Shown here in pieces: positions 9,986 through 32,188 of a stretch of DNA of 64,000 nucleotides (position 1 is the stretch's first letter; each line of letters opens with the position of its first letter). Where the stretch lies: positions 14,398 to 78,397 of the forward strand of contig CAYGXM010000002.1 of assembly GCA_964354105.1 (NCBI GenBank), read 5' to 3'. This DNA is from Candidatus Woesearchaeota archaeon. GTDB lineage: Archaea; Nanobdellota; Nanobdellia; UBA10117. The notes below the pieces were generated by a model. It worked only from the letters and a program-made list of their open reading frames with translations. It was not told where the DNA came from and ran no database searches. The translations under genes and the position numbers were made by a program.

Positions 9986-10615
9986 TTATCCAATCGTATA
10001 CAAAACTTCTTGTAATTTGAATGTTGTTCCTGGCTCAACAAAAACTTGCAGCTCGAAATTAGCCGAGGTAAATTCGCCTGAACTTAGGTAACAGCTATCC
10101 ATGCAAACTGCAGTAACTGAGCCGCTTGCTGAATTCTCTCCGAGATTGCCTGGCCAATCTAATTTTTTACCTTCGTCTATCAATAAGCTTGCATTTTGCT
10201 CGACTTCAACTGCATGCGCCGCAGGTATTCCTGTTGCAGTGCCTGTTATCAAGGACGGCTTTTCCTTTTGCCCGACATTTGTATAAACCAAAGACCTTGA
10301 ATTGCCATTTGCCAGATAAATTGCAACATCGCCCTCGCCCTTAGTTTCGCCGGACAAGCTGAACGAACTAATATAAATCGGCTCGCTGGAAGCTGATTTT
10401 AAATCAAGGGCCTGGCTTTCTGTAAATTCCATGTTCAGGATTTGAGCTTTTGTGTCTGATGCCACAAATCCTGTCATGGATGTACCAAAGAACAGCAAAG
10501 GCACTGCTATAATCGCAGCTATTATGAATATAAACTCGTATTTGCGAAGCTTAGACTCACTGTCAATTTTTGCATTCTTTGCTTCCTTGCCTATCATCAC
10601 TGATTTCATATTCAT
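9986..10615 (-). CDS. membrane-anchored surface protein, small paralog of the giant proteins' N-terminal module (209 aa)
   Basis: N-terminal TM, then SLSGETKGEGDVAIYLANGNSRSLVY ... ITG ... CMDSCY, the same module as in 10612-11076 and in both giants. Confidence 0.55.
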   Translation of the reverse strand: MNMKSVMIGKEAKNAKIDSESKLRKYEFIFIIAAIIAVPLLFFGTSMTGFVASDTKAQILNMEFTESQALDLKSASSEPIYISSFSLSGETKGEGDVAIYLANGNSRSLVYTNVGQKEKPSLITGTATGIPAAHAVEVEQNASLLIDEGKKLDWPGNLGENSASGSVTAVCMDSCYLSSGEFTSANFELQVFVEPGTTFKLQEVLYTIG

Positions 10616-11076
10616 TTGTAGACTACCCTGCTAATTATAATACTTGTGCTTGGTTCCAGCTCAACATACAGCGAATAAGGATGATTTTCAGTTGTGAAGT
10701 AGCAAGTTTCTTCGCAGGCATTCCTAAAGTAATTCGCATCTGCCTGGGATGCAGCAACATAGCCTGTTATTCCCGCCGGCTTTTGCGTCTGCAGGCCTGA
10801 ATAAACCAAAAGCCTATGATTGTCTGAATCCTGAAGATAAACCTTGGCCTTGCCCGGCCCTTTGATAATTCCTGTTATGCTGAATGAAGTTATATCATCG
10901 TCTATGCTTAAATTATGGGCTGATGTCTCTGAGATTTCCAAGTTTACATCCTGGCCGCTGTATTGTGGGTTAAATATGGCTGCGGAATGTGTATTTAACA
11001 AAAAGGGGGCAAATAGCACAATAATTATAGCAAGTACTAATAATATTGTCAGGTTTTTATGCTTCATCTTTTCCAA
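10612..11076 (-). CDS. membrane-anchored surface protein, small paralog of the giant proteins' N-terminal module (154 aa)
   Basis: TM, then SITGIIKGPGKAKVYLQDSDNHRLLVYSG...AGITG...CEETCY. Overlaps neighbours by 4 and 20 nt. Confidence 0.55.
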   Translation of the reverse strand: MEKMKHKNLTILLVLAIIIVLFAPFLLNTHSAAIFNPQYSGQDVNLEISETSAHNLSIDDDITSFSITGIIKGPGKAKVYLQDSDNHRLLVYSGLQTQKPAGITGYVAASQADANYFRNACEETCYFTTENHPYSLYVELEPSTSIIISRVVYK

Positions 11077-12937
11077 ATCCTATTGATGCCCTTTTCAGCT
11101 CTTCCTGGGCGAGCTTGACCTTTTCCTGCGCCATTTTCATTTTGTCCTCGGCTATTTTTTTCTTGTATTCCTGCAGCATCTTTTCAGCCTGCTGTTTTTC
11201 TGAAAATGCAATCTGTTTTATCTTTATGGCTTCAGCGCGCTCCTTTGCAATTTCCTCTTTAGCCTTTTCCTTTTCTTTTGCAATTGAATCCTGCAGGGCT
11301 TTCTTAGCTAATTGCGCAGCTTTCAGCTCTTCGGCAGCTTTCAATTTTGTTGCTTCAGCTGCCTTCACTCTTTCTATAGCTGCTTTCTTGATGTTGGCGA
11401 CATCTGAGAGCCTTTTGTTGATTACAAACTGTTCCTTCTCAAACTGCTTCATCTTTGTAGCCTTGACTTTTGCAAGCTCTGAATCTACCTTCTTCTTTTC
11501 AGCAGTTATTGCATGATTTTGTGATAGAATGTATTGATAGCGGTCTTCAACCTGTGCCCTCAACTGTTCTGCCTGTTCTTTCTCTTCCTTGATTTTTGCC
11601 AAGGCCTCCTCAACTATCTCCTTTGCAGAGCATGCGTTGTTCCTTTCCTGCTCAACTGTGCTCTTTTGTAATGCTAATTCATGAATTTCTTTTTCCAATT
11701 CCAATCTTTTCGTTTCTTCGAGCTTCAAGTCGTCCAAGAGCTTCTGCTTTAACGCATGGGTTTCTTCCAGCTCCATTGAGAGCTTTAATTTATCCTGCTC
11801 AATTTCTCTGAGTTTGTTTTCTGCTTCCCGCCTGAATCCTTCAGTCTTGGCGCGTTCTGCTTCAATCAGCTCCCGGGCTCTTTGTTTTTCATTTTCTATT
11901 TGTGCCCTAAGCTTTTCCTTTTGATTATCCATTTGCTCAGCGAACTTTCGCTTTTGCTCAGCAAGGCTTTCTCTTGCTTTTTGCTTCTGCTCGCTAATAA
12001 CCTCGAGAGCCTTGTGCAACTTCTCATCAATCCTTTCCTTTTCACCCTCAAGATTTTCCCGCTCATTGTGCACGTCCTTTAATTCTGTCTCGACCTCAGC
12101 TTTTTCTTTCATGACGGCATCAAGTTCTGCAGCAGCTTTGCGCTCATGCTCTTCGGCGTTCTTAAGCAGCTGCTCTGTCCTGATTTTCTCTTCATCCAGC
12201 AGCAACCTTGCTTTGTGTGCTTCGTCTTCTGCCAGCCGTTTTTCCTGCAATAAGCTCTCTTCAGTATCTTTTTTGATGCTTTGTAATTTCTCAATCTCGG
12301 ACTTAGCGTTCTTTTGCTCTTCTTCAATCAGCTTTCTTGCTTTCTGCTTTTCTGCAGATAGAATTTCTTCATATCTTTGCTTCAATTGAGAATATCTGTG
12401 ATTCAATGCTGAAATTTTCTCGCTTGCCCTTGCTTTTTCCTCTTCCAGCTTTTCCTTTTGGACATCCAGATTTAGCTGAACACGCTGTCTGGCAATTTCT
12501 AAGTCGTCATAAAGCCTCTTTTTCTCCTTCTCCAAGGCTATTTTTTCCTGCTGCATGCTCCCCAATTCTGTCTTAGTTTCTTGGTGTAATCTTTCTGTTT
12601 CAGAAAGCCTCTCTTCCGATGCCTGCTTTTCAGCTTCTATAGCCTTAACCCTGTCCGCCAGTTGCGTTCTTGCCTCAACAACTGTCTGGATCTGCACCTG
12701 TTTTTTCTTTTTCTCTTCAAACAGTGCATTTTCAAGTTCCTTTATTTTATTCTTGAGATTTTGATTTTCTTTCTGCAATCCTTCAATAGCATTCCGCTTC
12801 TCACCCTTCAGCCTGTCGATTTCCTGGTCTTTGACAATAGCCACGTCAAGTTTTTCAGAGATCTTTTGCTCAAATTCCTCTATCTTCTGCTTTTCTTCCT
12901 TCAATTTTTTGCTTGTGCTAAAGAGATTAAATGCCAT
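11057..12937 (-). CDS. 626-aa cytoplasmic coiled-coil protein (E/K/Q/L/A-rich, no signal or TM)
   Basis: Heptad-like low-complexity sequence throughout. Its start overlaps the end of the 3488-aa gene by 11 nt. Confidence 0.55.
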   Translation of the reverse strand: MAFNLFSTSKKLKEEKQKIEEFEQKISEKLDVAIVKDQEIDRLKGEKRNAIEGLQKENQNLKNKIKELENALFEEKKKKQVQIQTVVEARTQLADRVKAIEAEKQASEERLSETERLHQETKTELGSMQQEKIALEKEKKRLYDDLEIARQRVQLNLDVQKEKLEEEKARASEKISALNHRYSQLKQRYEEILSAEKQKARKLIEEEQKNAKSEIEKLQSIKKDTEESLLQEKRLAEDEAHKARLLLDEEKIRTEQLLKNAEEHERKAAAELDAVMKEKAEVETELKDVHNERENLEGEKERIDEKLHKALEVISEQKQKARESLAEQKRKFAEQMDNQKEKLRAQIENEKQRARELIEAERAKTEGFRREAENKLREIEQDKLKLSMELEETHALKQKLLDDLKLEETKRLELEKEIHELALQKSTVEQERNNACSAKEIVEEALAKIKEEKEQAEQLRAQVEDRYQYILSQNHAITAEKKKVDSELAKVKATKMKQFEKEQFVINKRLSDVANIKKAAIERVKAAEATKLKAAEELKAAQLAKKALQDSIAKEKEKAKEEIAKERAEAIKIKQIAFSEKQQAEKMLQEYKKKIAEDKMKMAQEKVKLAQEELKRASIGFGKDEA

Positions 12938-15900
12938 TATCTTTGTCTCCTCTTGTTATTTTCCTATTTAGATAATTGCTGACCTTATCGTAGAGCCTCT
13001 CCAGGTGCTTACGCTCCTCCGCCAATAATTCAACTTCCAGGGCCATCTCCTCTCTCCTTTTTACAATAAGGGCTATAATAAATATTACGGTTACTGTTGC
13101 GGCTAGAATCCACCACAGCCACCTTCCACCAAAGAACTGTGCTATATTTATCGAGGGCAATGTGGGCAGAACAAATCCGGCAGCTGGCAATGCTTTTCCG
13201 CATATCTCCAGCTGAATTTCTTGGACCATGCCATATGCAGACTTTATCAGATTCCTGGCTAAATCATAATTTCCTCTTGCAGCCGCATCTTCTGCTGCCT
13301 TGAGGATATTATCAAGATCTGTAGTCTTTGTTTTCAATTCATTATACATATTTCGAAGCTCAATCAAGCTGTTGATTATATCCTGCGGAACTCCTGGTGG
13401 CAACACAGGCGCAGTGATGTTAACAGGCACACCAACAGCAGGTGCTGGTGCTGGCGGCACTACGGGCGGAATAACTGCAGACGTGACATCAAAGGCCTTG
13501 CTGGCATTCGCATCAGCTGTCGGCCAGGTTAGTTTAGACACGAAAAGGTACGCGCCAGGCGTTGACGGCGCCGTCAATGTTATCGCGGCTGTAGCTGACT
13601 GGTTTCTTCCAATAAAGATGGTCCGCACATCTAACGCAGTAATGTTTCCGAATGAGTCTTCAATCCATGTTGTCAATGTTCGGTCTTCAGATATTTCCGA
13701 ATTCATGTTAATTGCCTTGACGACTCCTGTAATTGTGCTGCCTGCCGTAACGGATGCGGGCAGGCTGTCTATAATAACATCATACGGGCCGCCATAGCCA
13801 GGTATCTGCACAGAAGGCTGGTTTGAATAATAAAATACCGCATTTGCAGAAGCTGTCGCCTGGGTAAAGTTGTATGTATAGCTTTGGCTGCTCTTTGCTA
13901 TCAATTTTGTCCCATTAAAGGACACTGATGCTCCTCTTGTGAGATTTACAAATGTTGTTAATCCAATATCTGAATCTACAACAGATATTCCAGTTAAATC
14001 CTCTCCGCCCGCATTTACAATCTGGTCCGTTATGAGATATGTTATATTAGTTGTTGTCTGGTTCACAAATGCGACATTCTTGATCAAAATCAGCTGTGCT
14101 GCAGTAATGTTTTGCGGTATCACAATAATTGGCTGGTTTGATTCCACAAACAAACTTGTATTATAGAATGGGTCATAGCCTGTGGCGTTCGCTTTTTGCA
14201 GTGTTATAGTATTATCAACAGAACCCCGTGCGTATGTTAGCAAATAGCTCTCTATGACTTCCTGTGCACCATAAATGGAACCTATGCTCCAATTCTGGCT
14301 GGCGTCAGGGTCTGTTAGTATGGTATTCTCTGACGTTCCTCTTCCATTTGCAAGGTATAATGAAATGTTATAAGTGATATGTGATGAGTTTATGGCCTGC
14401 ACGCTCGGTATTTTATGCAAGAGAAGATTTGCCTTCTGGCCTGATTCAAGTAAGAAAACGCTGTTGTTTGTATAAACACCAGCATGATAATATGTTTTTG
14501 TTGCATTTATTCTTGCATCATATATCTTAGGTGAAGCCATGCCTGTCGTGTCCAAAGTGCAATTATAGAATCCGCTTCCTTCTTCAACATCATAGCAGGC
14601 ATATACAAAACTGCCATTTATTGGCTCAAATTTAGCATTCGCGCCCGTAATAGGATTTGCCAGCTCGTCATAAACATAACCTTTGAATGTAATATTCTGC
14701 CCTTCATAATATTTCGGCGTTCCTGTTGGAGCAGTTACATATGCATACAAAATGCCAAACACATTCAGGAAGTGTGTCGATGTTGCTGCTGTGTAGTTTT
14801 GTGTCTCAGGCAGAATTAATGTTATATTTCTAGGCCCTAATGCAACGTAAGACGTAAGATTTGTTATAATTGGCGCCCCATTATTAATCAATGCACCATT
14901 GTCGTACAACTGCATATTGCCTTCTCCAGCATTGCGGATTCCAGTTATGTTTACAGTCTGGCTCCTATTGACATTAAAGTCACTATTTGTTCCATTCAGC
15001 AGTAATGTGATGTTTGCTGCAGCTTTGTTAACAGTTACAAAGAACGTTTTGCTGCTTGCCGTGTGATTAAAGTCTCCAGGATTAACAACAGTGTAATTAT
15101 AATAGCCCGCAGCTAAAGTTACTGCAGTATTATTTTCAGCATTTATGTTTGTTCCATTTCGGTACATTGTTGCAGATAATAGATTTGTTGAAAACACTGC
15201 TGTAACAGTCTGCGGATAAGTTATATTCAAATCACTTTCAGCACCATTCAAGCTCAAGTTAACATAAGTCTGGGCAATATTTACAGTCAGGAAGAATGTC
15301 TTTGAGCTGCCAGTCTTGTTTGCATCGGTTGGAATAACTGCAGTATAATTATAATAACCTACTGCTAAAGTCGTAATTTCTGAAGTTCCAACATTAGTTC
15401 CATTTCTGTATAATGCCACAGTTCCATTATATCCGATTGCAGTTACATTAGTTGAAGTGCCATAAGTTACAGTCAGATTATTCTGTGCTCCATTTAGATA
15501 CAAATCGACTGCAGTCGGCTGTATGCCGACTGTTAATGTTCTGTTAATGGTATTTGAAGTATAATTTTCTCCGCCTGTTGTATTATATGTATAAACATAA
15601 GTGTTAACTCCTAGTGTTGCAACATCTGAAACTACTGAGCCGCTTCCAATTGTAGTACTATTTCTATACATAGTATACGTTACGTCAGAATCATTTGTAT
15701 TGCTTTCAAATGCGGTTGCATTTGTTTGTGTTGGGTATGTAACGGATTTATCGGCAGCAACGCCATCCAGCAATAAGTTTACTGTTGGTGTTGCTTTGTT
15801 GACTGTCAAGAACCAGGTTTCAGAGCTTGGCAGGTAATTTGAATCACCAGAATTTATGGCGGTGTAGTTGTAAGTTCCGGCTCCTAATGTTGCAATTTCA

Positions 15901-18900
15901 GGATTTGTGACATTAGTTCCATTCCTGTATAATGCCACAGAGCCCGCTGATGTTATTGCAGTAGCATTGCTTTGAGCTCCATAAGTTATTGTGGCATTTG
16001 CCTGTGCTCCATTCAGATACAAGCTGGTTGTTGTCGGCATTTTATTGATTATATAGGTAAATGTGCCTGTGCTGTTTGAATTTCCGGCAGTGTCGTTTGC
16101 ATACCATTTGTAATTATAGCTGCCAGCATTCAATCCGACAAAGGTCTTGCTGTAGACATCTCCAGATTGGACTGCATTAGTGTAATTTGTCCCATTAAAC
16201 TCGAATATTACTGTTCCTACGGCATAATTATCTGTCCAGGTTGCATTGAATTCATATGTCTGTGTCGGTGAGTATGTTGTGGGGCTTGCCGGGCTCTCTG
16301 AAAGATTGAAATATTGCGGCGGAGTCTTGTCTATCACAAACAAGACGGATTCAAATGATGGATAGCCAACATTATTCCTTGCATATACTGTAAGATTATA
16401 TGTGCCTGAAGGCAAAGCGCCTACATTAACTAAGTCAGTCCAGTTAAATATAGGCTGGTTTATTGAATTATTTGAATTTGACTGCACAATCGCACCTGTT
16501 GAATTAGTTATATTATACGAGCTCGCAGTAAGCATGTTGTTTTGTATAAATACATTCAAGTTGAAGTTGGAGCCCCATTGCGAGTTATTCAATGGTGTGA
16601 AAATCTGTATGAGTGGGGGGGTATTATCTATTGTAAAGTTTACTGAGCTATTTTGCTGGTTTCCTAATGTATCATTCGCATACGCTGTAAAGGTGTAATT
16701 GCCTTCGCTGACAGTTGTGGTGTCCCACGTATCATTATAAATTGGCTCTGTCCCCGACATTGTTCCTGATTTCACAATTCCTGACGTATTAGTTATTTCA
16801 TACCAGACAGAATTAACGCCAACTAAATTATCTGTAACATTAACTTCCAGAGTAGTAGTAAAGCCCAAGATGTCATTCTGTACTGGCCTGATATGGACTA
16901 TTACCGGTGGTGTTGCATCAACTGTCAACAATCTTGTTTCACTCTGGCCTGTATTGCTGGCCCCGTCAGTGCAGTTTACATACCATTGATTATATCCTTC
17001 AAGCACTGTTGTATTTGTTATTGTTGTTGCTGTATTATTCGCAACAGAAGCATTAGTTCCGCTCGGCGCATCATTAATGTAAAGCGTACAATTTATGGTT
17101 GTATATTGATTATCTGTTGCATTAAATATAAAATTCTGTGTTTGTGTTGTGCTTGTTGTATTGTTACCTGGCGACATCAAGTTTACAACTGGCGGCGTAG
17201 CATCAACTGTAACAGTCCAGTTTGCCGGCGCGAATGCACAGTTGTTTGATGTGTCGCAAGCCAGACAATTCCACAATATTATACCATTATTCAGATTAGT
17301 TTTTTGGAAAGTTGTTTCATTTGATGTTCCTGTAATTATATTTGTGCTATCGGCTGAGAAAATTCCCGTATAATTCCAATACAAGGTCATGTTAGCAAGC
17401 TGATAATTATCTGTTGCATTACAAGTGAAGTTAAGGTCTTTCCCATTTGCGCTTCCGTTTGGCGGATTCACAAGTGCAGTAGTCGGAGGCGCGCAGTCAG
17501 TTATGTTTATGCTGTCAGACACTGTTATGCGTGGCCTGGTTGGGAACGTTGTCTTGATACAGCTTACATTGTAGGCCTTCAGGCCTGTTGAGCTGAAAGT
17601 TCTTGCATACTGGTAATAATTCGATGTGGCATTATAGGTCATTGAATTGCCTGTTGAGTCTGTGAAATTTATGATGCAAGTAGCACCTGTATTTGTAAAG
17701 TTGTTTCCGCCGAGCACCCTGTAATAATACGCATAAAAGTCTATTGAGCTTCCAACGCAGGCGGGTCTGTTGTTGCCGGGCATTCCAGTGTCATTCTGGT
17801 CCCAGATGAGCAATCTGGAAGTTCCATTTGTCGAGAAATTGGTGAAATGCGCAACATCAAATGTCACTGTTCCTGTTGTATTTTCATAAGTGACATTCTG
17901 GCAAGTCGTGTTGCTGCATATTTCGCCATTAATAAGCACGTTAAAGTCCTCAGTATCGCTCCAGTTAAGGCCTCGTAGCTTCAATTGTGCGCTTGAGTTA
18001 AATGTTGGATTCAGGCCAAAGTCAACTGAAATAAAGTTGTCCGAAATGTTTACATAAGTGTCAAAGTTCTGGCTTGCTGCATTTACACAGCCCTGCCATT
18101 GTATCTGTCCGTATGATGGTATTTCCAGTACTGCCTGCCCATTACAAACATTTGTCAAATCAGGCAGCGTCGCCCAATTTGTCGTATTGCCTGTGTAATT
18201 TGTTGAAATTGGAACTGCAGCTGTGTTGACAGCAAGTGCGTATGTTGCAGAGTTATTTGCATTTCCTGCAGCATCAGAGGCTCTGCAATACCAGTTGTAA
18301 TTGCCATTTGTCATGGTTTTGCTGAATGTTGTGCTGTTGCTTGTTCCAGTAACTATATTCGTCTGGTTCAGCACGCTGTTTATGTAAAGTGAAATATTTG
18401 CGAGTGCGATATTATCTGTTGCAGAACAGTTGAACAGCACAGAGCCATCGCCGTCTACCGCATTATTGGCGGGGCTGTTCTGAGTAACTGTCGGCGGGGT
18501 TATATCCGGAACAGTTACATTAAATGTCATTATATTCGTTGAATTCCAATTGCCCTGCGTGTCATTTGCCCAGATTCGCCAGCCAATTATGCCGCTGGCG
18601 GAGCTGTTGCTCCAAGTAAAGTTGCTCCAATTTCCAGTGCTCGGGCCTATTTGCAGCGGGGAACCATAAACTCCAGTCTTATTTGCCCAAACTCCACCAG
18701 ATTCATTTGTTGAAAGCATTGCATAACTCAAGTTTACATTGTCTGTCCAGTATGCAGAGAGCTTAATTGAGCCAGTATTATTTATTACACTCGCATTCTG
18801 GCTCTGGCTTGACCATCGTGGCGGTTGTATATCTGTCCAATTAACTATAAGTCTTGGCTGCCGAGATGTATTGGTTGCATCATTGCTGCTCACATAATAT

Positions 18901-21900
18901 TTTCTATTAGTTCCTGACTCAGTTTCATCTTTTATTATCCAGCCGAAGTTTTGTGCCTGGTTGTCTGTAAAGTTCTGCACATCTGCAGTTACATTCCAAT
19001 AATAGAATCCAACAGCGTTAACAGATGTATTTGCTAGCTCGTTTGCTGCAAAGTCGCCTCCAGTTGTTGTCCATGAGTTTCCAGTGCTGTAAACATTCCA
19101 TGTTACCTGAAGCTCTACCCAGTTTCTTGCCGGAGACTGCTGGACTTTGTGCGCACCATGAGTTCTTGCGCCCGCCCCGTCAACATTATTAAACATATAA
19201 AGAGAAAGGTTTGCATTGTCTATCCTTACACCTGATGGTATGCTGGATAAATTGAATTTTATTATGCCTCTATGCACACCTGCACCTCCGCTTCTTCCTA
19301 CTCTTATGCTGCTGGCAGAGCCATAATTGCTACCTGTAGAACCCGCTCTGATGTAAGAATCATTTGTCACCGCAGTTCCAGAGTATGTATTCACACCTTG
19401 TACTTCAAATCCTCCCGAAGTTGTAAAATTAAAGGCCGCAAACCCTGTTTGGTCGCCTGGCACAAATGTAATGTTGTAAAGCGTGCCTGGTGTCAAACCA
19501 TATGCTTCTGTTGCCCAGTAATCTTCATCGCAAGATTGTAATGTATATGTATAATTATCGCACCTTGTAAGCACGTCCCCTGCGGGGTTAACAGTCAGGG
19601 TCGCAGTCTGGAACTGCCCGAGCGGATTAACTGCAAATTCGGCAAGCGAACCTGCTGCAGGTGTTGGCTCATCAAGGCCCGGCAATGCAAAACTGCCGTC
19701 AACAGTATAGTTGTAATATGTTATTGCTGAAACGCTTGCTGAGCTTGCTGGCTGTATTATTATGGTATAATTACCGCCAAACAGATCAAAGTTATGTACA
19801 GTATTAGTTTGTGAATAAACAGTCTGGCCTGTGGAGTTTATTATTGTAAGCGCCACATTTACCGGCGCTCCTGCAGCATTTGTTACGCTATTGTTTTGGT
19901 CTGCAGAAACTGCATATGTTTGTGCGGTGTTATTCACAAAAGTTGCATTAACATTACCGGAATTATCTGCTGTTCTCGTGCCAATTGTGTGGCTAGTTGC
20001 AGCTGAAAAACCTGTTGCATTATAGCTGCTGCTTGGTGTTGAAACATTTGCAGTATAACTGCCATCAATCCAAATTTCTGTATGGTTGAAATCGCTGTCA
20101 GCAGGGTTTGTCCAAGTCCAATATATCCAAGTTGCGCCGCGCGATGAAACCGCCAAATTAGTTACAGCTGCGGGGGGTGTTGTATCTGAGCAGGCTAAAG
20201 TTACTGCAGAATCCATAACATTTGTTGTATTTACATTTCCAGTTGTATCTTTAGTGTTAATTGTTATATTATGTGTAGTATTGCAACTGAAACCTGTTGC
20301 GTTATAATATGCATTTGAAGTATTCAATATATTTGAGCCGTCTACGTAGATTATTGCCTCACTGAAGTCAGAGTCGCCCGGATTTGTCCATGCCCAGTAA
20401 ATCCAAGTTGTTCCTGTTGAAGTCTCATTCAAATTCGTAACTGCAGCCGGAGGTGTTGTATCAGGAGGAGGAGTGCTCGCTATTGTCAGATTATAGTTCA
20501 TTGCAGAATAATCAGAATAGGTATTGCTTCCTGCCAAATCAATTGCCCTGCATCTCAAGTCGACATTAGACTGCTCTGCAATTCCAGAAAGGTTCCATAA
20601 GTAAGTGCTTTCATTTGTATGATTGCCAATTGCAGTCCAAGAATAATTATAACCGCCAATAGTATAAGTTATACCTGGGATTATGTATTTATTGCCCGAC
20701 TGGCTGCCAGTTGGAACTGTACTATCCAGATCATTGTTTGTCGAGCTCTCATAATAGCTACCAGTTCCTGTCGGCGGGTAGTTTGCACAGTTCGCGCTGT
20801 CATCCCTTCCAAGATTATAAGTCGCAGAAATAGGAGCAACGCCTACATAATAAGTCTGGCCCAATGTAATCGTTATTGGTGTTGCCAGAGTTCCACTTAT
20901 CCACCCTGATGCACCTGTTCCAGTCAATGTTACTTCCTCAGATATCTGGTTTCCACCACTGCTATACAACGCCATTTCTAGAGTCTCGCTGGCTGAGAGG
21001 CTCGTATCTGCCTGCCAGAACCAGAGTTTAGTTAATGTGGCAGTCCCAGAGCCGGGAATTGTCCACTGGCTATAAAATTCATAGCTTCCAGATGCATAAG
21101 TGCTGTCACTGCAGGAACTTGGAACTTGAGTTGCAGTCTCTGAAGAAGTTGAGTGATTATAGTAAGCATCAATAACATAAGTAATTGTATCATTATCTGC
21201 ATCTGTTGAGCCTGAACAACTTATGTTCACGTCTTCATAGAATATACTGTTGCAGCTGCTGCCATCACAAGTTATGCTTGTTGGTGTTGTTGGCGGGTCA
21301 TTATCTATGTAATTAATAGTTAAAGGAACGTAATCCATTACCAGCCATGAATCCTGGCTGTCGCCAACACTTCCAATAGCCTCATATCTTGTTCTTACCC
21401 AGCCACTTGAATTAACATAATGTAAAAGCCCTGATGTTACTGTATAACTGTCTACTACTGTATTTCCACCATCATTTGTTCTTAAATCTCCTATATCTAC
21501 CCATGTACTGCTAGTCCAATTATATATCCAAACATCCTGTGTGCCAGTCCAACTTCCTTCTGCCGCATCGCCATCGCAGGCAGCAGGAGCAGAACCAGAA
21601 CCATCGTGGCAATATGTTGCAGAAAATGTCATATTTGTGATGTCTGCGCCAGTTATGCCAAGCGAACTGATATTATACTCAAGAACTATTACTGAATTCA
21701 ACGTATCTGTAGATGTTTCACCTGCATAGAAATAAGTTGTATCATCTGCTTGTGTTGCGGTGTATGTTCCGCCTTCCTCATCATCTCCTTCATTATCTGT
21801 CACATAACCTGCATCAGGAGTTCCGCTAGACGGACTTCCCTCTGCAAAACCAGGGTCATCCGGCGTTAATGTAAATGAATAAGTTTCTCCAGGCGTTATG

Positions 21901-23393
21901 GCCTGCAAAAATACCCAATCGATGCAAAATTGATAAGTTTCATTTGTTTCGTCGTCATAAACATCAGAACACGTTCCAAGACATTCCTGCGTTGCAAAGT
22001 CCCAATTAGCGCATTTATACAAGACTGTACCTTTTGCTTCTACTGTTACAGTTGCTTCGGTAAATTCAAAGCCAGTAGGGTCAATTGCATAAACTTCAGC
22101 ATAGCCTTCATAATCTCCTGTTTCTGGAACATCATCCAGCTTTATGAATTCTGTAACATTTTCATCTATGACTAAATCATCAAATATTATTTCTTTTACG
22201 GGGTGATTTTGCGGCTTTACCTTGATGTCATACTTGCCTTTAGGGATATCCAAGCCCGCTTCTCCTGTTTCTTCTTCAACAACTGCTGCCCCCTGGAATA
22301 ATGGAATCTCTTCAATGGATTTTTCTTTTTCTTCGCTTTTGCCTATGGCTTCAAGCTCGTCAGTTTCCGCATCAACAAATTCAATCGTAGCTGCAATTGT
22401 GTTATTACTTGAATCTTCGATGCCTGTTGCAAAGAAAACCGTTTCATTTGTTATATTTTCAACCTGAGAAATTAGCAACTCATAATAAATAGAATCCAAT
22501 TTCAAAACTGCTTCGGATTCTATTTCAATCTGCAAGATATAGCTGCTTTTATTCAGCATTTCAGAAATATAACAAGTTTCTTCACAAACAGTTTCAAATA
22601 GGATTTCTTCGGCTAATGGAATTTCTATTGTTTGGTTTTCAGTTACATTTTCAAGTGTTGTAACATTTTCTTCAGGAATTGTGATGTTTTCTGTTGGAAT
22701 TTCTGTTGGTTGAGTTTCATTTGCTGGTTCTTCAGCTGGAGGCTGCTCAACTGGAGGGATTTCCTCTGCTGGAGGTTCTTCAGTTGGCGGAATTTCTGCG
22801 CCAGAGCCACTGGTGGTGTCAGCCTCATTTGGCTGGCTTTCGTCCGGAGAAGATAATTCTCCGGAGGATGGTGGCTCTGGCTGTGCAGTTCCAAGCGGAT
22901 TTGCTAATCCGCTGGATCCCGCTGAACTTTGTTCAGCTTGGTCCTGCGAATTCGTACTCTCATCGGAGGATGAGCTTGATTCGGTATCTGCTGCGGCAAA
23001 AGCAGTAATAGGAGAGGGTCCTGTTTTGAGGTTTGAAGAATCGAAAATTAATAATCGGCTGGAATCTGTGACAAGATAAACCTTGGCATTTCCGGTAATT
23101 GCACCTGAGAGTTTTACAGAAGTCAGCTGGAACTCCCCTGCAGGAACGTTCTGTAAAGTCCAGTTATATTCATAAGTTTCTGCAAATTTCTCATTAATAA
23201 CATCAGAATATGCTTTCTGCTCTCCTGCTGCAAAGAAACCAATAATTCTAGGTCCTGCAACAAAAATAAATGCAACAAGCGCAATCAGCACAACTATAAA
23301 CCCAATTATCAATAGTTCTTTTGCTATTGGCTTGTGGGCATATTCTTTTATCTCCCTTTTCACTTTTTTCAATTTTGATTCTTCTGATTTCAT
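12927..23393 (-). CDS. giant cell-surface protein, 3488 aa
   Basis: Uninterrupted 10.5-kb ORF with an N-terminal TM and the shared AKVYL/CEETCY module. Contains an acidic S/E/P/T linker, Ig/Fn3-like repeats with a WIYWxWTNPxDSDF motif, and about 80-aa tandem repeats (LYRNGTNV...YNYTA). Hundreds of N-x-S/T sequons, a Pro-rich stalk, and a C-terminal TM plus about 45-aa charged tail. Confidence 0.8.
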   Translation of the reverse strand: MKSEESKLKKVKREIKEYAHKPIAKELLIIGFIVVLIALVAFIFVAGPRIIGFFAAGEQKAYSDVINEKFAETYEYNWTLQNVPAGEFQLTSVKLSGAITGNAKVYLVTDSSRLLIFDSSNLKTGPSPITAFAAADTESSSSSDESTNSQDQAEQSSAGSSGLANPLGTAQPEPPSSGELSSPDESQPNEADTTSGSGAEIPPTEEPPAEEIPPVEQPPAEEPANETQPTEIPTENITIPEENVTTLENVTENQTIEIPLAEEILFETVCEETCYISEMLNKSSYILQIEIESEAVLKLDSIYYELLISQVENITNETVFFATGIEDSSNNTIAATIEFVDAETDELEAIGKSEEKEKSIEEIPLFQGAAVVEEETGEAGLDIPKGKYDIKVKPQNHPVKEIIFDDLVIDENVTEFIKLDDVPETGDYEGYAEVYAIDPTGFEFTEATVTVEAKGTVLYKCANWDFATQECLGTCSDVYDDETNETYQFCIDWVFLQAITPGETYSFTLTPDDPGFAEGSPSSGTPDAGYVTDNEGDDEEGGTYTATQADDTTYFYAGETSTDTLNSVIVLEYNISSLGITGADITNMTFSATYCHDGSGSAPAACDGDAAEGSWTGTQDVWIYNWTSSTWVDIGDLRTNDGGNTVVDSYTVTSGLLHYVNSSGWVRTRYEAIGSVGDSQDSWLVMDYVPLTINYIDNDPPTTPTSITCDGSSCNSIFYEDVNISCSGSTDADNDTITYVIDAYYNHSTSSETATQVPSSCSDSTYASGSYEFYSQWTIPGSGTATLTKLWFWQADTSLSASETLEMALYSSGGNQISEEVTLTGTGASGWISGTLATPITITLGQTYYVGVAPISATYNLGRDDSANCANYPPTGTGSYYESSTNNDLDSTVPTGSQSGNKYIIPGITYTIGGYNYSWTAIGNHTNESTYLWNLSGIAEQSNVDLRCRAIDLAGSNTYSDYSAMNYNLTIASTPPPDTTPPAAVTNLNETSTGTTWIYWAWTNPGDSDFSEAIIYVDGSNILNTSNAYYNATGFSCNTTHNITINTKDTTGNVNTTNVMDSAVTLACSDTTPPAAVTNLAVSSRGATWIYWTWTNPADSDFNHTEIWIDGSYTANVSTPSSSYNATGFSAATSHTIGTRTADNSGNVNATFVNNTAQTYAVSADQNNSVTNAAGAPVNVALTIINSTGQTVYSQTNTVHNFDLFGGNYTIIIQPASSASVSAITYYNYTVDGSFALPGLDEPTPAAGSLAEFAVNPLGQFQTATLTVNPAGDVLTRCDNYTYTLQSCDEDYWATEAYGLTPGTLYNITFVPGDQTGFAAFNFTTSGGFEVQGVNTYSGTAVTNDSYIRAGSTGSNYGSASSIRVGRSGGAGVHRGIIKFNLSSIPSGVRIDNANLSLYMFNNVDGAGARTHGAHKVQQSPARNWVELQVTWNVYSTGNSWTTTGGDFAANELANTSVNAVGFYYWNVTADVQNFTDNQAQNFGWIIKDETESGTNRKYYVSSNDATNTSRQPRLIVNWTDIQPPRWSSQSQNASVINNTGSIKLSAYWTDNVNLSYAMLSTNESGGVWANKTGVYGSPLQIGPSTGNWSNFTWSNSSASGIIGWRIWANDTQGNWNSTNIMTFNVTVPDITPPTVTQNSPANNAVDGDGSVLFNCSATDNIALANISLYINSVLNQTNIVTGTSNSTTFSKTMTNGNYNWYCRASDAAGNANNSATYALAVNTAAVPISTNYTGNTTNWATLPDLTNVCNGQAVLEIPSYGQIQWQGCVNAASQNFDTYVNISDNFISVDFGLNPTFNSSAQLKLRGLNWSDTEDFNVLINGEICSNTTCQNVTYENTTGTVTFDVAHFTNFSTNGTSRLLIWDQNDTGMPGNNRPACVGSSIDFYAYYYRVLGGNNFTNTGATCIINFTDSTGNSMTYNATSNYYQYARTFSSTGLKAYNVSCIKTTFPTRPRITVSDSINITDCAPPTTALVNPPNGSANGKDLNFTCNATDNYQLANMTLYWNYTGIFSADSTNIITGTSNETTFQKTNLNNGIILWNCLACDTSNNCAFAPANWTVTVDATPPVVNLMSPGNNTTSTTQTQNFIFNATDNQYTTINCTLYINDAPSGTNASVANNTATTITNTTVLEGYNQWYVNCTDGASNTGQSETRLLTVDATPPVIVHIRPVQNDILGFTTTLEVNVTDNLVGVNSVWYEITNTSGIVKSGTMSGTEPIYNDTWDTTTVSEGNYTFTAYANDTLGNQQNSSVNFTIDNTPPLIQIFTPLNNSQWGSNFNLNVFIQNNMLTASSYNITNSTGAIVQSNSNNSINQPIFNWTDLVNVGALPSGTYNLTVYARNNVGYPSFESVLFVIDKTPPQYFNLSESPASPTTYSPTQTYEFNATWTDNYAVGTVIFEFNGTNYTNAVQSGDVYSKTFVGLNAGSYNYKWYANDTAGNSNSTGTFTYIINKMPTTTSLYLNGAQANATITYGAQSNATAITSAGSVALYRNGTNVTNPEIATLGAGTYNYTAINSGDSNYLPSSETWFLTVNKATPTVNLLLDGVAADKSVTYPTQTNATAFESNTNDSDVTYTMYRNSTTIGSGSVVSDVATLGVNTYVYTYNTTGGENYTSNTINRTLTVGIQPTAVDLYLNGAQNNLTVTYGTSTNVTAIGYNGTVALYRNGTNVGTSEITTLAVGYYNYTAVIPTDANKTGSSKTFFLTVNIAQTYVNLSLNGAESDLNITYPQTVTAVFSTNLLSATMYRNGTNINAENNTAVTLAAGYYNYTVVNPGDFNHTASSKTFFVTVNKAAANITLLLNGTNSDFNVNRSQTVNITGIRNAGEGNMQLYDNGALINNGAPIITNLTSYVALGPRNITLILPETQNYTAATSTHFLNVFGILYAYVTAPTGTPKYYEGQNITFKGYVYDELANPITGANAKFEPINGSFVYACYDVEEGSGFYNCTLDTTGMASPKIYDARINATKTYYHAGVYTNNSVFLLESGQKANLLLHKIPSVQAINSSHITYNISLYLANGRGTSENTILTDPDASQNWSIGSIYGAQEVIESYLLTYARGSVDNTITLQKANATGYDPFYNTSLFVESNQPIIVIPQNITAAQLILIKNVAFVNQTTTNITYLITDQIVNAGGEDLTGISVVDSDIGLTTFVNLTRGASVSFNGTKLIAKSSQSYTYNFTQATASANAVFYYSNQPSVQIPGYGGPYDVIIDSLPASVTAGSTITGVVKAINMNSEISEDRTLTTWIEDSFGNITALDVRTIFIGRNQSATAAITLTAPSTPGAYLFVSKLTWPTADANASKAFDVTSAVIPPVVPPAPAPAVGVPVNITAPVLPPGVPQDIINSLIELRNMYNELKTKTTDLDNILKAAEDAAARGNYDLARNLIKSAYGMVQEIQLEICGKALPAAGFVLPTLPSINIAQFFGGRWLWWILAATVTVIFIIALIVKRREEMALEVELLAEERKHLERLYDKVSNYLNRKITRGDKDNGI
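14700..16300. repeat. intragenic tandem DNA repeats, about 245-nt period, encoding Ig-like repeat units
   Basis: Recurring gttccatttc(g/t)gta(c/t)a(a/t)tg..cacag blocks near 15151, 15397 and 15914, plus recurring aattataata(g/a)cc..gctaaagt blocks near 15100 and 15340. Confidence 0.5.
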
Positions 23394-26300
23394 TAGAGCT
23401 TGATTTTCTTGCCACCGTGCCTTACATGATGGAATAATACTGCAAGAATGGTTACAGCTAGCCCTGCCAGAAAAACAGCTATGCCCAAAACGAGCTTGTC
23501 AGCGGGGATTGTGGTCTGCAGTGCTGTAACTGCAACAGTGGCGCCTGTAAGAGGTGTTTTAACAAAAGTGAATATCAGCAGGATGATAATCGTAATTATC
23601 AAAGCGATGTGCAATGCAGTCAGGGCATTTTTCAGCCGCGGCGGCAGATTTTCTTTCCTCATGGCAGCTATAGCAAATACAAGAATCAACAGTAAAAGTG
23701 TTGGAACAGCATACAATGGATTAGGAGCCTTGTATGGGCTGACTTGTACGGCTGCACCTGATAGAGGTTCTGGTGGTGAAGAGGGGATTTCCAGTCCTGC
23801 AGGCGTTGTCTCTGTGGGCGGGGTTGTTGAAACTGGAACAGTTTCCACTAGAATTATAATCCTTAATTTTGCTGAAGTATTTGTTTTTGCAATTAATGTG
23901 ATTTCGATATCGCTCTCACCATTATAATTAGCGTCTACATCTTTTGTTTCGTTTAATTCAAGATTAACTTTAACAGGCGCTGAAGTTATAGTTAGCTCTA
24001 CATAATCAGGGAACATTCCAGATAGCCTAATTGTATGAACTGTATTTGGTGAATAGCTTGCCGCATATGAAAACGTGCCGCCAAATGCCAAGTCTAAGTC
24101 TTTTGGCTGGCCAGGTGACAGGACAGCTTCTGCAGTTGCATTGCCAATCACGCCTGTACCACCGCCTCCACCACCATTATTGCCATTATTTCCGCCGGCT
24201 GCAGACGCCACGCTAAATGAATGCATTGTGCTAACATTGTTTACATTTCCAGAGGTATCGTTGCATTTGTAATACAAAGTATATGTCTGGCCGTTGCTCA
24301 AACCTGCATATGTAAAGTTGTGGTTTGTCGAGTCTGTATTTGTAAAGTTAGTTCCATCTGCGTAGGCAAAAGTTGAATTTGTTGTATTATATCTGCAAAT
24401 TGCATCCTCATTTGTTGTTATTTCGATTGTAGTTGAAGTTGTGCCTGCGCTTAACTGAGAGCCATTTGTCGGGCTCGATATCGTTATAACTGGCGCTGTT
24501 GTATCAGGCAATGCAGATATTGTAACATTATCCTGTCCTATTGCGCCATTTCCAGTGCCATCATTAGGTGTTACAACACATTTCCAAACATCTCCAATAG
24601 TTGTTAAAAGATTTGATAATGTATTAGCTGTCTGGCCTACCTGCAAGACATCATTCTTGTACCATTGATATGCATAATTAATTGAATCATTGTCCAAATC
24701 TGTTGATGCGCTTGTGATTGTCGCAACTAAATCTTCAGTATCTGCAGGCACATTTGGAATAACATCTACAACAGGAGCTGACGGCAAGGAGTTTGTTATA
24801 GTCCTTGCGACAGATTTTGCAGTTCCATAATCATTTCCATCATATGGAATAACTGAGCAATTCCACGTTTCTGTTTTTGTTGTATTGCCCGCTGCTAATA
24901 TTACAGAATTCTCAGTTCCGTTTGTTACACTTAATATTGCTGATAGAATTGCTGTTGAACCATTATACCAAGTGTAATTAGCAGTTAGTGTGTCTACAGC
25001 ATCAGCATCTGTTATTGTAAATGTGCAATTCAAGTCATCATTTGTATAAGCTATTGCAGGCGTTATTGCTGGTGTTGTGGAAACTGGGATATTATTGTAT
25101 GACAAAGTTCTAGCAGTTGAATTTACATCAGTATTATTGATGTTTCCATTTGTATCTTTAGTATGCACAGTTAGTGTATAATCCGTAAAGTTTTGCAGGC
25201 TTGTTGCATTATAATAATTATTTGACGTATTCGCAACATTGCTTCCATTTAGATAGATAATGGCCTGGCTGAAATCAGCATCAGCAGGATTAGTCCAGTT
25301 CCAATATATCCAAGTCTGGCTTCTGCTTTGATTTGCCAGGCTGGTTACTGAAGCAGGAGGTGTTGAATCTGCATGCAAAGTAACGGTTCTTGTTTCTGTA
25401 TTAGCTTTGTTTCCAGCAGTATCAACAGCATAGCCTTTGAAAGTGTAATTTCCATAAGATAGGCCTGTGAAATTATTGTAGTACTGGTTTGCTGTTGCGT
25501 TGTATAATGCAAGAACTTCAGAGCTGGACAAAGCTCTCCTGAACATCATGACATCATCAATTGAGCCATTAAGATAGCTTGCCTGATATCTGCCAATCAG
25601 TATGTTAAACGACTGATCCTGGACATCTCCTGTTTGAGCCTGCGTCCTCACTAGAGTACCATTGATATAAAGATTAATGGAACTTCCATTGTACACACCA
25701 ACTGCATGATACCATGTGTTTGTTGAAATAGGATATGTGGAAGTTGCCTTGTGTGTTGTTGCATTGGCGACATCAAAAATCAGATTAGTAGTTGAGATAT
25801 ACAAATTATAAGAGCTTGACGAAGCTGCCCTGTTGCTTACCAAGCCTGCTGATTGCGAATTTCTATACTTAAACCATAAGGAAATAGTCATCGCGGTAGT
25901 AAAATTAAAATCCTCATTATATGTCACTTGAATATATTGAGATGACGCTGAGTCAAAGTCATAACTTCCATTAAACACGCCGCTAGAATTATATGTTGGG
26001 CAAACTGAACATGAGCCAGTGTTTCCACTGCCAGAATCATCTGTAAATGATGTTCCACTAGTCTCTTCTAATCTCCACCAGCCGACTAATGCACTATCCC
26101 AATCCAGCATAGCATAGTGCTGGCTGCTTTCATCGGTGCTGCTTGCATTCACATAAACATAATTATTAGTTGTTGTATTTCCATCGCTTGGCGTTGGACT
26201 TACAAAGGAAATTGTTGGCGCTGCTCCTGTTTCACCATATGCAGGGTCGCTTGCTGTTAATGTTACCTCATATGGCTGGCCTGGTGTTATTTCCTGAACA

Positions 26301-27622
26301 AAAGTCCAGTTGCCATCTGTGCAAGTCTGATTTTCAAAGTCCCAACTCGCACATTTGTATAATGCGCTTCCTGTTGCAGTCACTGTAACAGTAGCTTCTG
26401 TAAAGTTAAGTTCTGTTGGATCAATAGCATAAACTTCAACATAACCTGTATTTGCTTCTGGAACATCATCAATGCCAATTACAGCATTTACATCGGATGT
26501 TGCATCAATGTCTTTGAATTCTATGCTCTGGATTGGAACACTTGTGTTCTGAACATCCACAACAAGATTATTTTCATCACTCGGAGCTGTTTCAAAGCTC
26601 TCCATATTGCCTTCGGCAGATATCTCATTGGCAGGAGGTGCAAAGATTTCGTTAGCTATAGTTTGCTGTCCTGTTGTTTCTTCAGCAACAACAGATTTTC
26701 CAGAATCGTCAACTAAAGCTATGTCTGCTGCAACTGGCTGGCCGTTGCTGTCTACAATTTCTATAGTTATGTTAACGGGAATATCTGTAAGATTCTGCAA
26801 TGAATAGCTTATTTCAGAAATGGAGAGCTCTCCATTTTCCACTTGGATTTCAAGAGTGTAAGTATTATCAGCCAAACCATCTGGAAGCAAGCAAGATTGC
26901 TCGCATGAATCCGTAAATGTTACAGGTGTTATCTCTATTGGCAGTGTTTTATTCACGATTTCTTCTGCAGTTACGTTTTCTGTTGTTGAGACATTCCCCT
27001 CAGCAGGTGGAATTTCTGTTGGTTGAGTTTCATTTGCTGGCTGTTCTTGAGCTGGCGCAGGTAATTCTGCGCCAGCTTCGCCTTGATCTGTGGTGTCAGG
27101 TACAGATTCCTCTTGAGCATTAGTTTGCTCAGAGGATGGTGGCGAAGCTGGTTCTGCAGACTCCTGCGAATCGGAGGATTCGCCGGAGCTACCCACATCT
27201 GAACTGGTGGTGTCAGATGAGCTTGAACTTGGATTGCTGATAACTTCAGTAAGAGCGCCTGTAACGGCATCCGCGAGAGATTCACTTTTCACTAGATTGC
27301 TAGAATCAAAAACGAGATAAGTTTCATTTCCAGTTTTTAGAAAGACTTTAGCAGAGCCTTCTCCGCTAAAAGAACCTGAAATCTTTAGGGCTTTCAAATT
27401 GTAAGGCTGTTCTTGGGGAATTTCAAATGTATAATCGCTGTTTGATGTGAATTTTTCATTAATGGAAGCTGAAAAATCTTCAGCAGGCGCAAAATATCTG
27501 CCTGTGATTTTAGGATTATGAAATAAGACTACGAGAGCTACGACTATGATAGCTGTTATGAGGAAAATGTATGTTGTTGCACTAGCTATAGGTTTAGTTA
27601 GTTTGCGGTCTGACACCACCAA
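23393..27622 (-). CDS. giant cell-surface protein, 1409 aa, with LamG (concanavalin A-like) domain
   Basis: N-terminal TM and the shared module. LamG signature at aa ~505-708 (LVGWWRLEETSGTSFTDDSGSGNTGS ... MTISLWFK ... WYHAVGVYNGSSINLYINGT), nt ~25499-26110. One WIYWNWTNPADADF Ig-like domain, a Gly-rich stretch, a TPP-rich stalk and about 4 C-terminal TM helices. Its stop overlaps the next ATG by 1 nt (TAATG). Confidence 0.8.
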   Translation of the reverse strand: MVVSDRKLTKPIASATTYIFLITAIIVVALVVLFHNPKITGRYFAPAEDFSASINEKFTSNSDYTFEIPQEQPYNLKALKISGSFSGEGSAKVFLKTGNETYLVFDSSNLVKSESLADAVTGALTEVISNPSSSSSDTTSSDVGSSGESSDSQESAEPASPPSSEQTNAQEESVPDTTDQGEAGAELPAPAQEQPANETQPTEIPPAEGNVSTTENVTAEEIVNKTLPIEITPVTFTDSCEQSCLLPDGLADNTYTLEIQVENGELSISEISYSLQNLTDIPVNITIEIVDSNGQPVAADIALVDDSGKSVVAEETTGQQTIANEIFAPPANEISAEGNMESFETAPSDENNLVVDVQNTSVPIQSIEFKDIDATSDVNAVIGIDDVPEANTGYVEVYAIDPTELNFTEATVTVTATGSALYKCASWDFENQTCTDGNWTFVQEITPGQPYEVTLTASDPAYGETGAAPTISFVSPTPSDGNTTTNNYVYVNASSTDESSQHYAMLDWDSALVGWWRLEETSGTSFTDDSGSGNTGSCSVCPTYNSSGVFNGSYDFDSASSQYIQVTYNEDFNFTTAMTISLWFKYRNSQSAGLVSNRAASSSSYNLYISTTNLIFDVANATTHKATSTYPISTNTWYHAVGVYNGSSINLYINGTLVRTQAQTGDVQDQSFNILIGRYQASYLNGSIDDVMMFRRALSSSEVLALYNATANQYYNNFTGLSYGNYTFKGYAVDTAGNKANTETRTVTLHADSTPPASVTSLANQSRSQTWIYWNWTNPADADFSQAIIYLNGSNVANTSNNYYNATSLQNFTDYTLTVHTKDTNGNINNTDVNSTARTLSYNNIPVSTTPAITPAIAYTNDDLNCTFTITDADAVDTLTANYTWYNGSTAILSAILSVTNGTENSVILAAGNTTKTETWNCSVIPYDGNDYGTAKSVARTITNSLPSAPVVDVIPNVPADTEDLVATITSASTDLDNDSINYAYQWYKNDVLQVGQTANTLSNLLTTIGDVWKCVVTPNDGTGNGAIGQDNVTISALPDTTAPVITISSPTNGSQLSAGTTSTTIEITTNEDAICRYNTTNSTFAYADGTNFTNTDSTNHNFTYAGLSNGQTYTLYYKCNDTSGNVNNVSTMHSFSVASAAGGNNGNNGGGGGGTGVIGNATAEAVLSPGQPKDLDLAFGGTFSYAASYSPNTVHTIRLSGMFPDYVELTITSAPVKVNLELNETKDVDANYNGESDIEITLIAKTNTSAKLRIIILVETVPVSTTPPTETTPAGLEIPSSPPEPLSGAAVQVSPYKAPNPLYAVPTLLLLILVFAIAAMRKENLPPRLKNALTALHIALIITIIILLIFTFVKTPLTGATVAVTALQTTIPADKLVLGIAVFLAGLAVTILAVLFHHVRHGGKKIKL

Positions 27623-27673
27623 ATGTGACCATCCTCCGATTACTAATTTTATAGTATGGGTATATTATAAATG

Positions 27674-32147: not shown

Positions 32148-32170
32148 GGCCTTAATTGAAGTGTGAAACC

Positions 32171-32188
32171 TTATATATATAAAATATT
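32171..32188. promoter_or_regulatory. TATA-rich divergent promoter TTATATATATAAAATATT
   Basis: Lies between the divergent starts at 32147 (minus) and 32198 (plus). Its closeness to both ATGs suggests leaderless transcripts. Confidence 0.4.

Follow-up and report, generated by a model that had tools for sequence, protein, structure and literature searches.

A new N-terminal domain family shared by two giant and two small surface proteins of a woesearchaeal gene row

Introduction

Why should four proteins of very different length, encoded side by side, begin with the same block of residues? The question is raised by a tight minus-strand gene row (positions 9986–28351; p225, p1409, p3488, p626, p154, p209) in a 64,000-nucleotide stretch of DNA from a Candidatus Woesearchaeota archaeon, contig CAYGXM010000002.1, which is called the window here. 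Stop and start codons overlap within the row. Translations and a MAFFT alignment reveal that p209, p154, p3488 and p1409 each carry one N-terminal hydrophobic segment followed by a conserved block. The block is a genuine protein domain of ~115–155 residues, so far unnamed, and is referred to below as the module. We tentatively read it as a head through which the small proteins dock to the giants p3488 and p1409.

The window is archaeal by gene content, encoding aIF5B, an archaeal GluRS and a type III RuBisCO. A genome scan with close relatives found a p209 relative at 74% identity in a metagenome-assembled genome of Candidatus Woesearchaeota, and the organism is, as judged from these genes, a DPANN archaeon of the Woesearchaeota type. 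The DPANN lifestyle is one of attachment to other cells, for which the giant surface proteins of these archaea, almost wholly unannotated, are the foremost candidates.

Results

One module in four proteins

A sequence-only reading of the window had proposed that the four proteins share a transmembrane (TM) helix followed by a conserved block. The block is real in all four. BLAST is significant in every pair that includes a small protein: p209 matches p154 at E 1.2e-11, p1409 at E 4.3e-9 and p3488 at E 1.2e-4, and p154 matches p3488 at E 1.7e-4 in the N-terminal part of the module (N-part) and 0.005 in its C-terminal part (C-part). With SEG filtering, the N-parts of p3488 and p1409 match each other at E 3e-12. 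An independent hidden Markov model (HMM) was built from 111 distant small relatives, with the hydrophobic segment, the first of two ITG motifs, the window proteins and their close relatives all excluded, and was run against all 433 open reading frames (ORFs) of the window, taken stop to stop at 50 amino acids (aa) or more. The four proteins are its sole matches (E 1e-14 to 2e-37; p209 1.9e-37, p154 5.3e-21, p1409 8.5e-19), and in both giants the match comes in two pieces, one on each side of a low-complexity insert. Because this HMM lacks the TM and low-complexity parts and matches the four ORFs alone, the similarity is not limited to such parts, the weakness that the sequence-only reading had itself foreseen, and chance or compositional similarity is ruled out. 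The motifs it had listed hold across 116 aligned family members, and the module does form nearly the entire ectodomain of the two small proteins.

In the consensus of the 116 members, the hydrophobic segment leads through P-S-I-T-G-[FYH]-V into '...L.S..lSG.V.G.G.v.vYL...g..LvY.N...'. This is followed by I-T-G-[MLF]-A-[VTI], a variable insert, 'G.F...C.[ED][TS]C[FY][LI]' and 'Y.L...vEpGT.l.I..i.YT'. All 116 members have the G of 'SG' and both Cys of C-x-[ED]-[TS]-C, and at least 90% conserve the G.G hairpin, the F four residues ahead of the first Cys and the mid-module T-G of 'ITG'. Five strands make up the N-part, with the hairpin 'SG.v.G.G.v.vYL', and three to four the C-part, with the invariant 'F...C.[ED][TS]C' and 'vEpGT.l.I..i.YT'. 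The loop between the halves is predicted to be disordered and begins with the conserved I-T-G-[MLF]-A. Its length ranges from 4 aa in p154 through 106 aa in p1409 and 126 aa in p3488 to ~150–300 aa in some module-only relatives of 334–471 aa. In the giants this insert is acidic and rich in S, T and P, with 4–5 N-x-S/T sequons.

The Cys pair lies in a confidently modelled loop directly behind a strand in the AlphaFold model of p209. Exactly two Cys are present within the first 450 residues in 144 of 177 heads, which points to a disulfide or a metal site as the predicted role of the pair. Heme binding through CxxxCH was considered and rejected, since the residue after the second Cys is F, Y, I, A, L or S and never a conserved H. 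An internal duplication was not supported: the N-half and the C-half align with an hhalign probability of 13%, and the ITG-plus-strand unit alone aligns.

A known fold

The AlphaFold model of p209 (pLDDT 85.2, pTM 0.72) comprises a helix at residues 19–42 and then a 9-strand sandwich; that of p154 (pLDDT 73.8) has 8 strands. The best structural neighbours are the carbohydrate-binding modules (CBMs) CBM36, CBM6 and CBM35 (for example PDB 7ay3, 1ux7 and 2v4v) and CBM32, and the jelly-roll fold is superposable on galactose-binding-domain-like and CBM6-35-36 members. As modelled, the module is a beta-jelly roll of the galactose-binding/CBM6-35-36 type, a known and common fold. The two halves of the module fold together, which makes the insert a loop of this jelly roll.

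Profile searches gave no sequence homology to CBM families, and identity to CBM structures is ~4–11%. The module differs from CBM36, CBM6 and CBM35 in being strictly N-terminal and in being split by an insert that is sometimes very long. On the module side of the comparison, C-x-[ED]-[TS]-C is invariant and an ITG motif opens the loop. A Foldseek search of BFVD for viral relatives gave nothing convincing (TM-scores ≤0.4).

A new sequence family

The profile search was exhaustive over 1.84 billion cluster representatives, clustered at 50% identity. At E≤1e-3 it returned 952 representatives, of which 363 reach E≤1e-10. All of the best 150 matches listed have the module near the N-terminus, beginning within the first ~145 residues and ending by ~residue 380. 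Among 177 sequences, 141 are stand-alone proteins of 160–235 aa, 11 are giants of 2,000–4,069 aa and 6 are the module-only proteins with long inserts. The small stand-alone protein, mostly of 170–230 aa, is the commonest form of the family, its p209-like class being both the commonest and the best conserved, and the N-terminal copies of the giants are diverged relative to it. A word-indexed protein search gave ~35 close relatives, with none longer than 300 aa among the matches.

Pfam offered no relevant match for the four window copies and one chance match (E 0.008) for the 116 members, in agreement with the sequence-only reading, which had been unable to name a Pfam family. NCBIfam gave single weak chance matches alone for the same members, and a sequence profile search of the PDB gave nothing below E 0.16. 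Identity with a known family is thereby ruled out, and no description of the module was found in the literature searched. The module is a new and sizeable sequence family, whereas its fold is known and so is the type of protein that carries it, the giant adhesin-like surface proteins. Unusual are the wide range of loop lengths accepted by the jelly roll (4 to 126 aa in the window, ~150–300 aa in some module-only relatives), stand-alone paralogues beside giants, and a duplicated linear motif.

The N-terminal segment and the ITG motifs

The N-terminal segment has an n/h/c layout and ends in P(-5)-S-I(-3)-T-G(-1)/F or Y, where the slash marks the junction; in p154-like proteins the ending is S-A-A/I. 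The ending fits the (-3,-1) rule of signal peptidase. In the 116 members, position -1 is G, S or A in 115 and position -3 is I, V or L in 103, with P at -5 in 70–77. The hydrophobic start may be a cleaved signal instead of the TM helix that the sequence-only reading assigned.

The junction is also found apart from the module. About 10 module-less secreted proteins in the window and related loci (Table 1) have a long h-region (~18–21 aa) followed by x-[ILFY]-T-G and then A, F, Y or L, whereas other secreted proteins of the same loci have a short h-region with A-x-A. The TG ending occurs in ~10 of ~20 non-module ORFs that bear a signal, against a chance expectation of a few percent. Because module-less secreted proteins share the x-T-G ending, the first ITG is taken as part of the export signal and not of the module, and the lineage may possess two classes of export signal. 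Separately, the ORF at 38218–38814(+) has a lipobox-like N-terminus, 'IIFASGC/TSH', which suggests an archaeal lipoprotein-type signal; this would be a third signal type for the genome.

The second ITG motif, I-T-G-[MLF]-A-[VTI]-x-[DE], mirrors the junction motif. It is conserved at the level of core residues (T in 112/116, G in 107/116) and is the lowest-confidence stretch in the AlphaFold models of p209 and p154. It could serve as a contact in trans or as a processing site. In the latter case, I-T-G-[aromatic/M/L]-[V/A]-x-x-[D/E] would be the site of a lineage-specific peptidase or transpeptidase, and the module would be cut, and perhaps rejoined or released, in fibre maturation. Despite their near-invariance, both motifs fall in parts of the models that are unstructured and of low confidence, and T occupies -2 in 104–112 of the 116, which the (-3,-1) rule alone does not demand. 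The x-T-G junction behind long h-regions in module-less proteins, set against A-x-A behind short ones, would also accord with such processing, as would the SpoIIM-family membrane protein that is encoded nearby in each of the window, L019 and L012. However, no protease was identified, the first site of p154-like proteins (S-A-A) is an ordinary signal-peptidase site, the second motif of p3488 reads ITA, and the conservation of the loop motif could equally mean contact in trans. We consider processing at these motifs improbable. It would be loosely comparable to sortase-, SEA- or LapG-type processing; the sortase signal LPXTG itself was not found, the motif being P-x-[ILV]-T-G with other spacing, N-terminal and behind the hydrophobic segment. 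In an extended form, for which we hold out equally little hope, the ITG motifs would mark an undescribed sorting or processing specific to Woesearchaeota or DPANN, in which a dedicated membrane enzyme cuts, and possibly joins, the small subunits and the giants into one fibre. The SpoIIM-family neighbour is a speculative candidate for that enzyme.

A hydrophobic helix followed by a beta domain also resembles archaeal pilins, and the small proteins could then be type IV pilin-like, with the giants as adhesins at the pilus tip. A few members carry the JGI label 'ComGC', one gives a weak ComGD match, and [KRHQ]-x-E-[LIV] stands at the start of the h-region in 70 of 183 members. Nevertheless, the class III pattern [KR][GA][ALIFQMVED][ILMVTAS]3 is present in 6/183 only, and no Pfam or NCBIfam pilin match reaches the curated thresholds. 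Pilus machinery is not found nearby either. The PilB/FlaI ATPase is absent among the window ORFs of at least 400 aa outside the operon, all of which are assigned other functions, the remaining two window ORFs longer than 350 aa (372 and 381 aa) encode DNA polymerase IV and TyrRS instead of a PilC platform, and neither PilB/FlaI nor PilC is among the Pfam assignments of called genes in the related loci. With so few class III signals and no such machinery in the vicinity, the pilin reading is largely refuted and highly unlikely.

Architecture and anchoring of the giants

From the N-terminus, p3488 consists of a signal or anchor, the module, a second shared domain, a stalk of Disaggr_repeat and immunoglobulin-like (Ig-like) domains, a C-terminal TM and a charged tail. 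In p1409, the signal or anchor, the module and the second shared domain are followed by Laminin_G_3 and three C-terminal TMs. Pfam domains recognised in the giants are Big_7, Big_3_3, Disaggr_repeat and Laminin_G_3. The second shared region extends for ~210–230 aa beyond the module, and its copies in p3488 and p1409 have 34.5% identity (E 6e-28). Its pattern is '...DDVPE...EVYAIDPT...ATVTV.A.G..LYKC..WDF..Q.C...ITPG..Y..TLT..DP', it has no Pfam match, and it is present in a module-less giant of locus L017 too (L017 ~11600–12000).

A C-terminal TM is present in nine of the family giants of at least 2,000 aa and is missing from two (P0081 and P0132). The giants have the layout of fibrillar adhesins, with a globular head at one terminus, a repeat stalk, and a cell anchor at the opposite end. 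They would probably be held in the membrane by the C-terminal end. Since they carry C-terminal TMs and their N-terminal ending fits the signal-peptidase rule, the head may sit at the distal end of a fibre with type-I anchoring, and the membrane-proximal head of the sequence-only reading becomes doubtful.

The relatives of p3488 always possess the N-terminal head and the C-terminal TM and tail, while the middle varies in length and composition (2531–4069 aa in total). Identity of the heads is 23–66%, no higher than that of aligned stalk segments. The tail motif LLxEERxHLExLYxKVxNYLNRK is common to these relatives, and the tail (…EEMALEVELLAEERKHLERLYDKVSNYLNRK…; window 12930–13118(−)) is kept in P0049, P0064, P0124 and L011. 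The coiled-coil protein p626 has no signal and is found only in loci that also hold a p154-like gene. A link between the p3488 tail and p626 inside the cell is possible.

Paralogue classes and the part played by the module

The module was mapped in related loci with the independent HMM (Table 1). The order giant(s), coiled coil, p154-like, p209-like recurs in the window, L007/8, L011 and L019, and genes of the p626 and p154-like types occur together in L007/8, L009, L011 and L019. The distant giants of L003 (2547 aa) and L009 (2832 aa) have the same split module. Modules group by protein class and not by genome: p209-like modules are 49–64% identical across genomes, and their identity to the other classes of the same genome is 22–33%. 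The four copies are therefore old paralogues, presumably with distinct roles, and the grouping suggests separate classes, kept across genomes, that would act as non-redundant subunits.

The reading that we favour, at somewhat less than an even chance, is that the module is a shared docking or assembly head which would join the small paralogues with the N-terminal heads of the giants. It is favoured because the genes are co-encoded with overlapping codons, the paralogues are old and class-specific, the position is always N-terminal, and the ends of the giants are conserved around a variable middle. Such kept ends are typical of assembly or anchoring and not of fast-evolving ligand sites. In the proposed assembly, p154 and p209 would associate through the module with the N-terminal end of both giant adhesin-like proteins to give a hetero-oligomeric surface structure. 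The C-terminal TM segments would hold the giants in the membrane, and the cytoplasmic tail of p3488 would possibly be tied to the cytoplasmic coiled coil p626. If the N-terminal signal is cut at ...ITG/, the head would lie at the distal tip; if it is kept, the head would be tethered at the membrane beside the small, N-terminally anchored paralogues.

Several observations weigh against this picture. The co-occurrence of module and giants that the sequence-only reading had led one to expect recurs in L003, L009, L019, L007/8 and L011, but the association is frequent and not obligatory. L014 is syntenic with the window, and there the two large proteins keep the signal and a low-complexity stretch and have lost the module, while the small gene stays. 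In L017 a small member adjoins the module-less giant (2627 aa), in L018 a giant bears the module without small partners, and L016 has a lone small gene amid metabolic genes. The h-region of ~18–21 residues is long for a signal peptide, and the T at -2 is conserved. Moreover, the closest solved folds are carbohydrate-binding modules, which in the models are equally compatible with a lectin role.

Alternatively, then, the module could be a lectin-like adhesive tip, a jelly roll that would bind carbohydrate or another ligand and that fibrillar adhesins with a C-terminal anchor would present at their distal N-terminus. As for the small paralogues, they would be free or anchored lectins for glycans of the host or of the cell itself, for instance on the glycosylated inserts of the giants. 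The structural neighbours (CBM36, CBM6, CBM35 and CBM32), the layout of an N-terminal domain, an Ig-like/LamG/beta-helix stalk and a C-terminal TM, and the 4–5 N-x-S/T sequons of the inserts are all consistent with this, and large LamG-type proteins with many glycosylation sites have been proposed to act in host attachment in other DPANN archaea (PMC7443923). However, no CBM profile matches by sequence, and the domain is fixed at the N-terminus in old paralogue classes, whereas adhesive tips usually diversify and shuffle. The conserved residues, judged from the alignment, look like core, hairpin and Cys positions instead of a binding cleft. A lectin-like tip is rather unlikely in our estimate, and the docking head is retained as the working interpretation.

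Gene row and neighbourhood

Table 1. Positions of the genes, of the module and its parts, and of related features. Coordinates refer to the window unless a locus is named; a slash within a sequence marks the junction.
Feature	Coordinates	Strand	Remarks
p209	9986-10615	-	209 aa ORF; small stand-alone member, p209-like class
p209 hydrophobic segment and c-region	10454-10561	-	'GTSMTG/FVASD' (first ITG-type motif); Sec signal peptide or signal anchor
p209 module	9989-10447	-	aa 57-209
p209 N-part	10253-10447	-	
p209 second ITG	10229-10252	-	
p209 insert	10127-10228	-	structured, 34 aa, with 'WPG'
p209 C-part	9989-10126	-	with CMDSC
p154	10612-11076	-	154 aa ORF; minimal stand-alone member, p154-like class
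p154 module	10615-10956	-	aa 41-154; 4-aa insert
p154 N-part	10774-10956	-	
p154 ITG motif	10750-10773	-	
p154 C-part	10615-10737	-	with CEETC
p626	11057-12937	-	626-aa coiled-coil protein without hydrophobic segment
p3488	12927-23393	-	giant; 3488 aa ORF
p3488 module	22476-23207	-	aa 63-306
p3488 N-part	23013-23207	-	
p3488 second motif	22986-23012	-	'PITAFAAAD'
p3488 insert	22608-22985	-	126 aa, E/P/S/T-rich, 5 N-x-S/T sequons
p3488 C-part	22476-22607	-	with CEETC
p3488 second shared region	21792-22475	-	aa 307-534
p3488 C-terminal TM	13062-13118	-	aa 3426-3444
p3488 cytoplasmic tail	12930-13061	-	predicted; 44 aa, conserved, charged
p1409	23393-27622	-	giant; 1409 aa ORF
p1409 module	26798-27472	-	aa 51-275
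p1409 N-part	27272-27472	-	
p1409 second motif	27245-27271	-	'DAVTGALTE'
p1409 insert	26927-27244	-	106 aa, S/E/P/T-rich
p1409 C-part	26798-26926	-	with CEQSC
p1409 second shared region	26165-26794	-	aa 277-486
p1409 three C-terminal TM segments	23438-23716	-	
p225	27674-28351	-	first gene of row; module absent
Module-less TG ending	30592-31185	-	'GPSLTG/AATTQ'
Module-less TG ending	29287-29928	-	'FFTG/AATTQ'
Module-less TG ending	31245-32207	-	
Module-less TG ending, L017	11060-18943		giant, 'EPSYTG/LSIYD'
Module-less TG ending, L017	18949-20661		
Module-less TG endings, L018	8398-9000; 9032-9628	-	'SGITG/AAVSN'
Module-less TG ending, L014	5169-9956		
Locus L019			SpoIIM, 2442-aa giant, 4069-aa giant, 638-aa coiled coil, 190 aa, 196 aa; four module copies, as in the window
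Loci L007/8, L011			giant, coiled coil, p154-like, p209-like
Locus L009			coiled coil, 96 aa, 2832-aa giant, 152 aa, 195 aa; variant order
Locus L003/4			two giants, then 196-aa member; 2547/2865-aa giant with split module

The p626 gene overlaps the stop of p3488 and the start of p154. Database versions of p154 (P0003) begin at the ATG at 11067, giving 151 aa, and the TTG start at 11076 is probably not used. p209 is identical to the database protein P0001; relatives of p209 mostly start ~13 codons downstream of the window ATG at 10615. In p225 a hydrophobic segment at the N-terminus precedes an ectodomain that is repetitive and beta-rich, with sub-threshold Pfam matches alone, some of beta-helix or trimerisation type (an xxxxx_C beta-helical trimerisation domain, PATR).

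Comparison with L014 and L019 places the surface-protein genes in a variable island (window ~9300–33400) between conserved flanks. One flank holds an MFS transporter and aIF5B, the other a PCMT methyltransferase, DUF202, an amino-acid permease and RuBisCO. Between these flanks L014 has 3 genes, against at least 11 for the window. A gene for a SpoIIM-family (PF01944) polytopic membrane protein stands beside the operon in the window (28416–29195(+)), L019 (1684–2493(−)) and L012 (1442–2365(−)), divergent from it in two loci and convergent in one, and its product may be linked to the biogenesis of these surface proteins. In L017 (1–10000), the distant small member P0099 comes directly after an 814-aa ATPase of the HerA/DUF87 type and several secreted proteins that lack annotation. 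This looks like a secretion or mobile-element cluster and not the usual giant operon.

Discussion

A domain family of ~950 clusters that marks the heads of giants and of their co-encoded small partners provides a handle for finding such loci in metagenomes. At ~150 aa and confidently modelled, the domain is suited to expression, structure determination and binding tests. Were the ITG junction indeed a processing signal, it would represent a new route of surface-protein sorting in archaea.

In chaperone-usher and sortase pili, the tip adhesin and the minor subunits share one assembly domain. The operon would be analogous in combining a large adhesin with small subunits that carry one beta-sandwich module, and a strand-like segment of each module is conserved even though the monomer model leaves it unstructured. 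The two differ in that there is no homology, that no usher, chaperone or sortase was found, and that the organism here is a single-membrane archaeon.

Among DPANN archaea, large LamG/ConA-like surface proteins of nanohaloarchaea and others are thought to mediate host attachment (PMC7443923). Those proteins and the giants of the window are alike in being giant, heavily glycosylatable and LamG-containing; the passages of that paper on these proteins do not mention the N-terminal module, the small paralogues or the ITG motifs.

With the topology corrected, the giants would be anchored C-terminally, in the manner of fibrillar adhesins. Monzon et al. reportedly describe these as an adhesive N-terminal domain, a repeat stalk and a C-terminal anchor. 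The giants similarly start with a globular head, continue as a stalk in which Ig-like, LamG and Disaggr domains occur, and end in a C-terminal membrane anchor. They differ in being archaeal and in using a TM with a cytoplasmic tail as the anchor in place of LPXTG. They differ, too, in that their head is also encoded as separate small proteins within the same operon.

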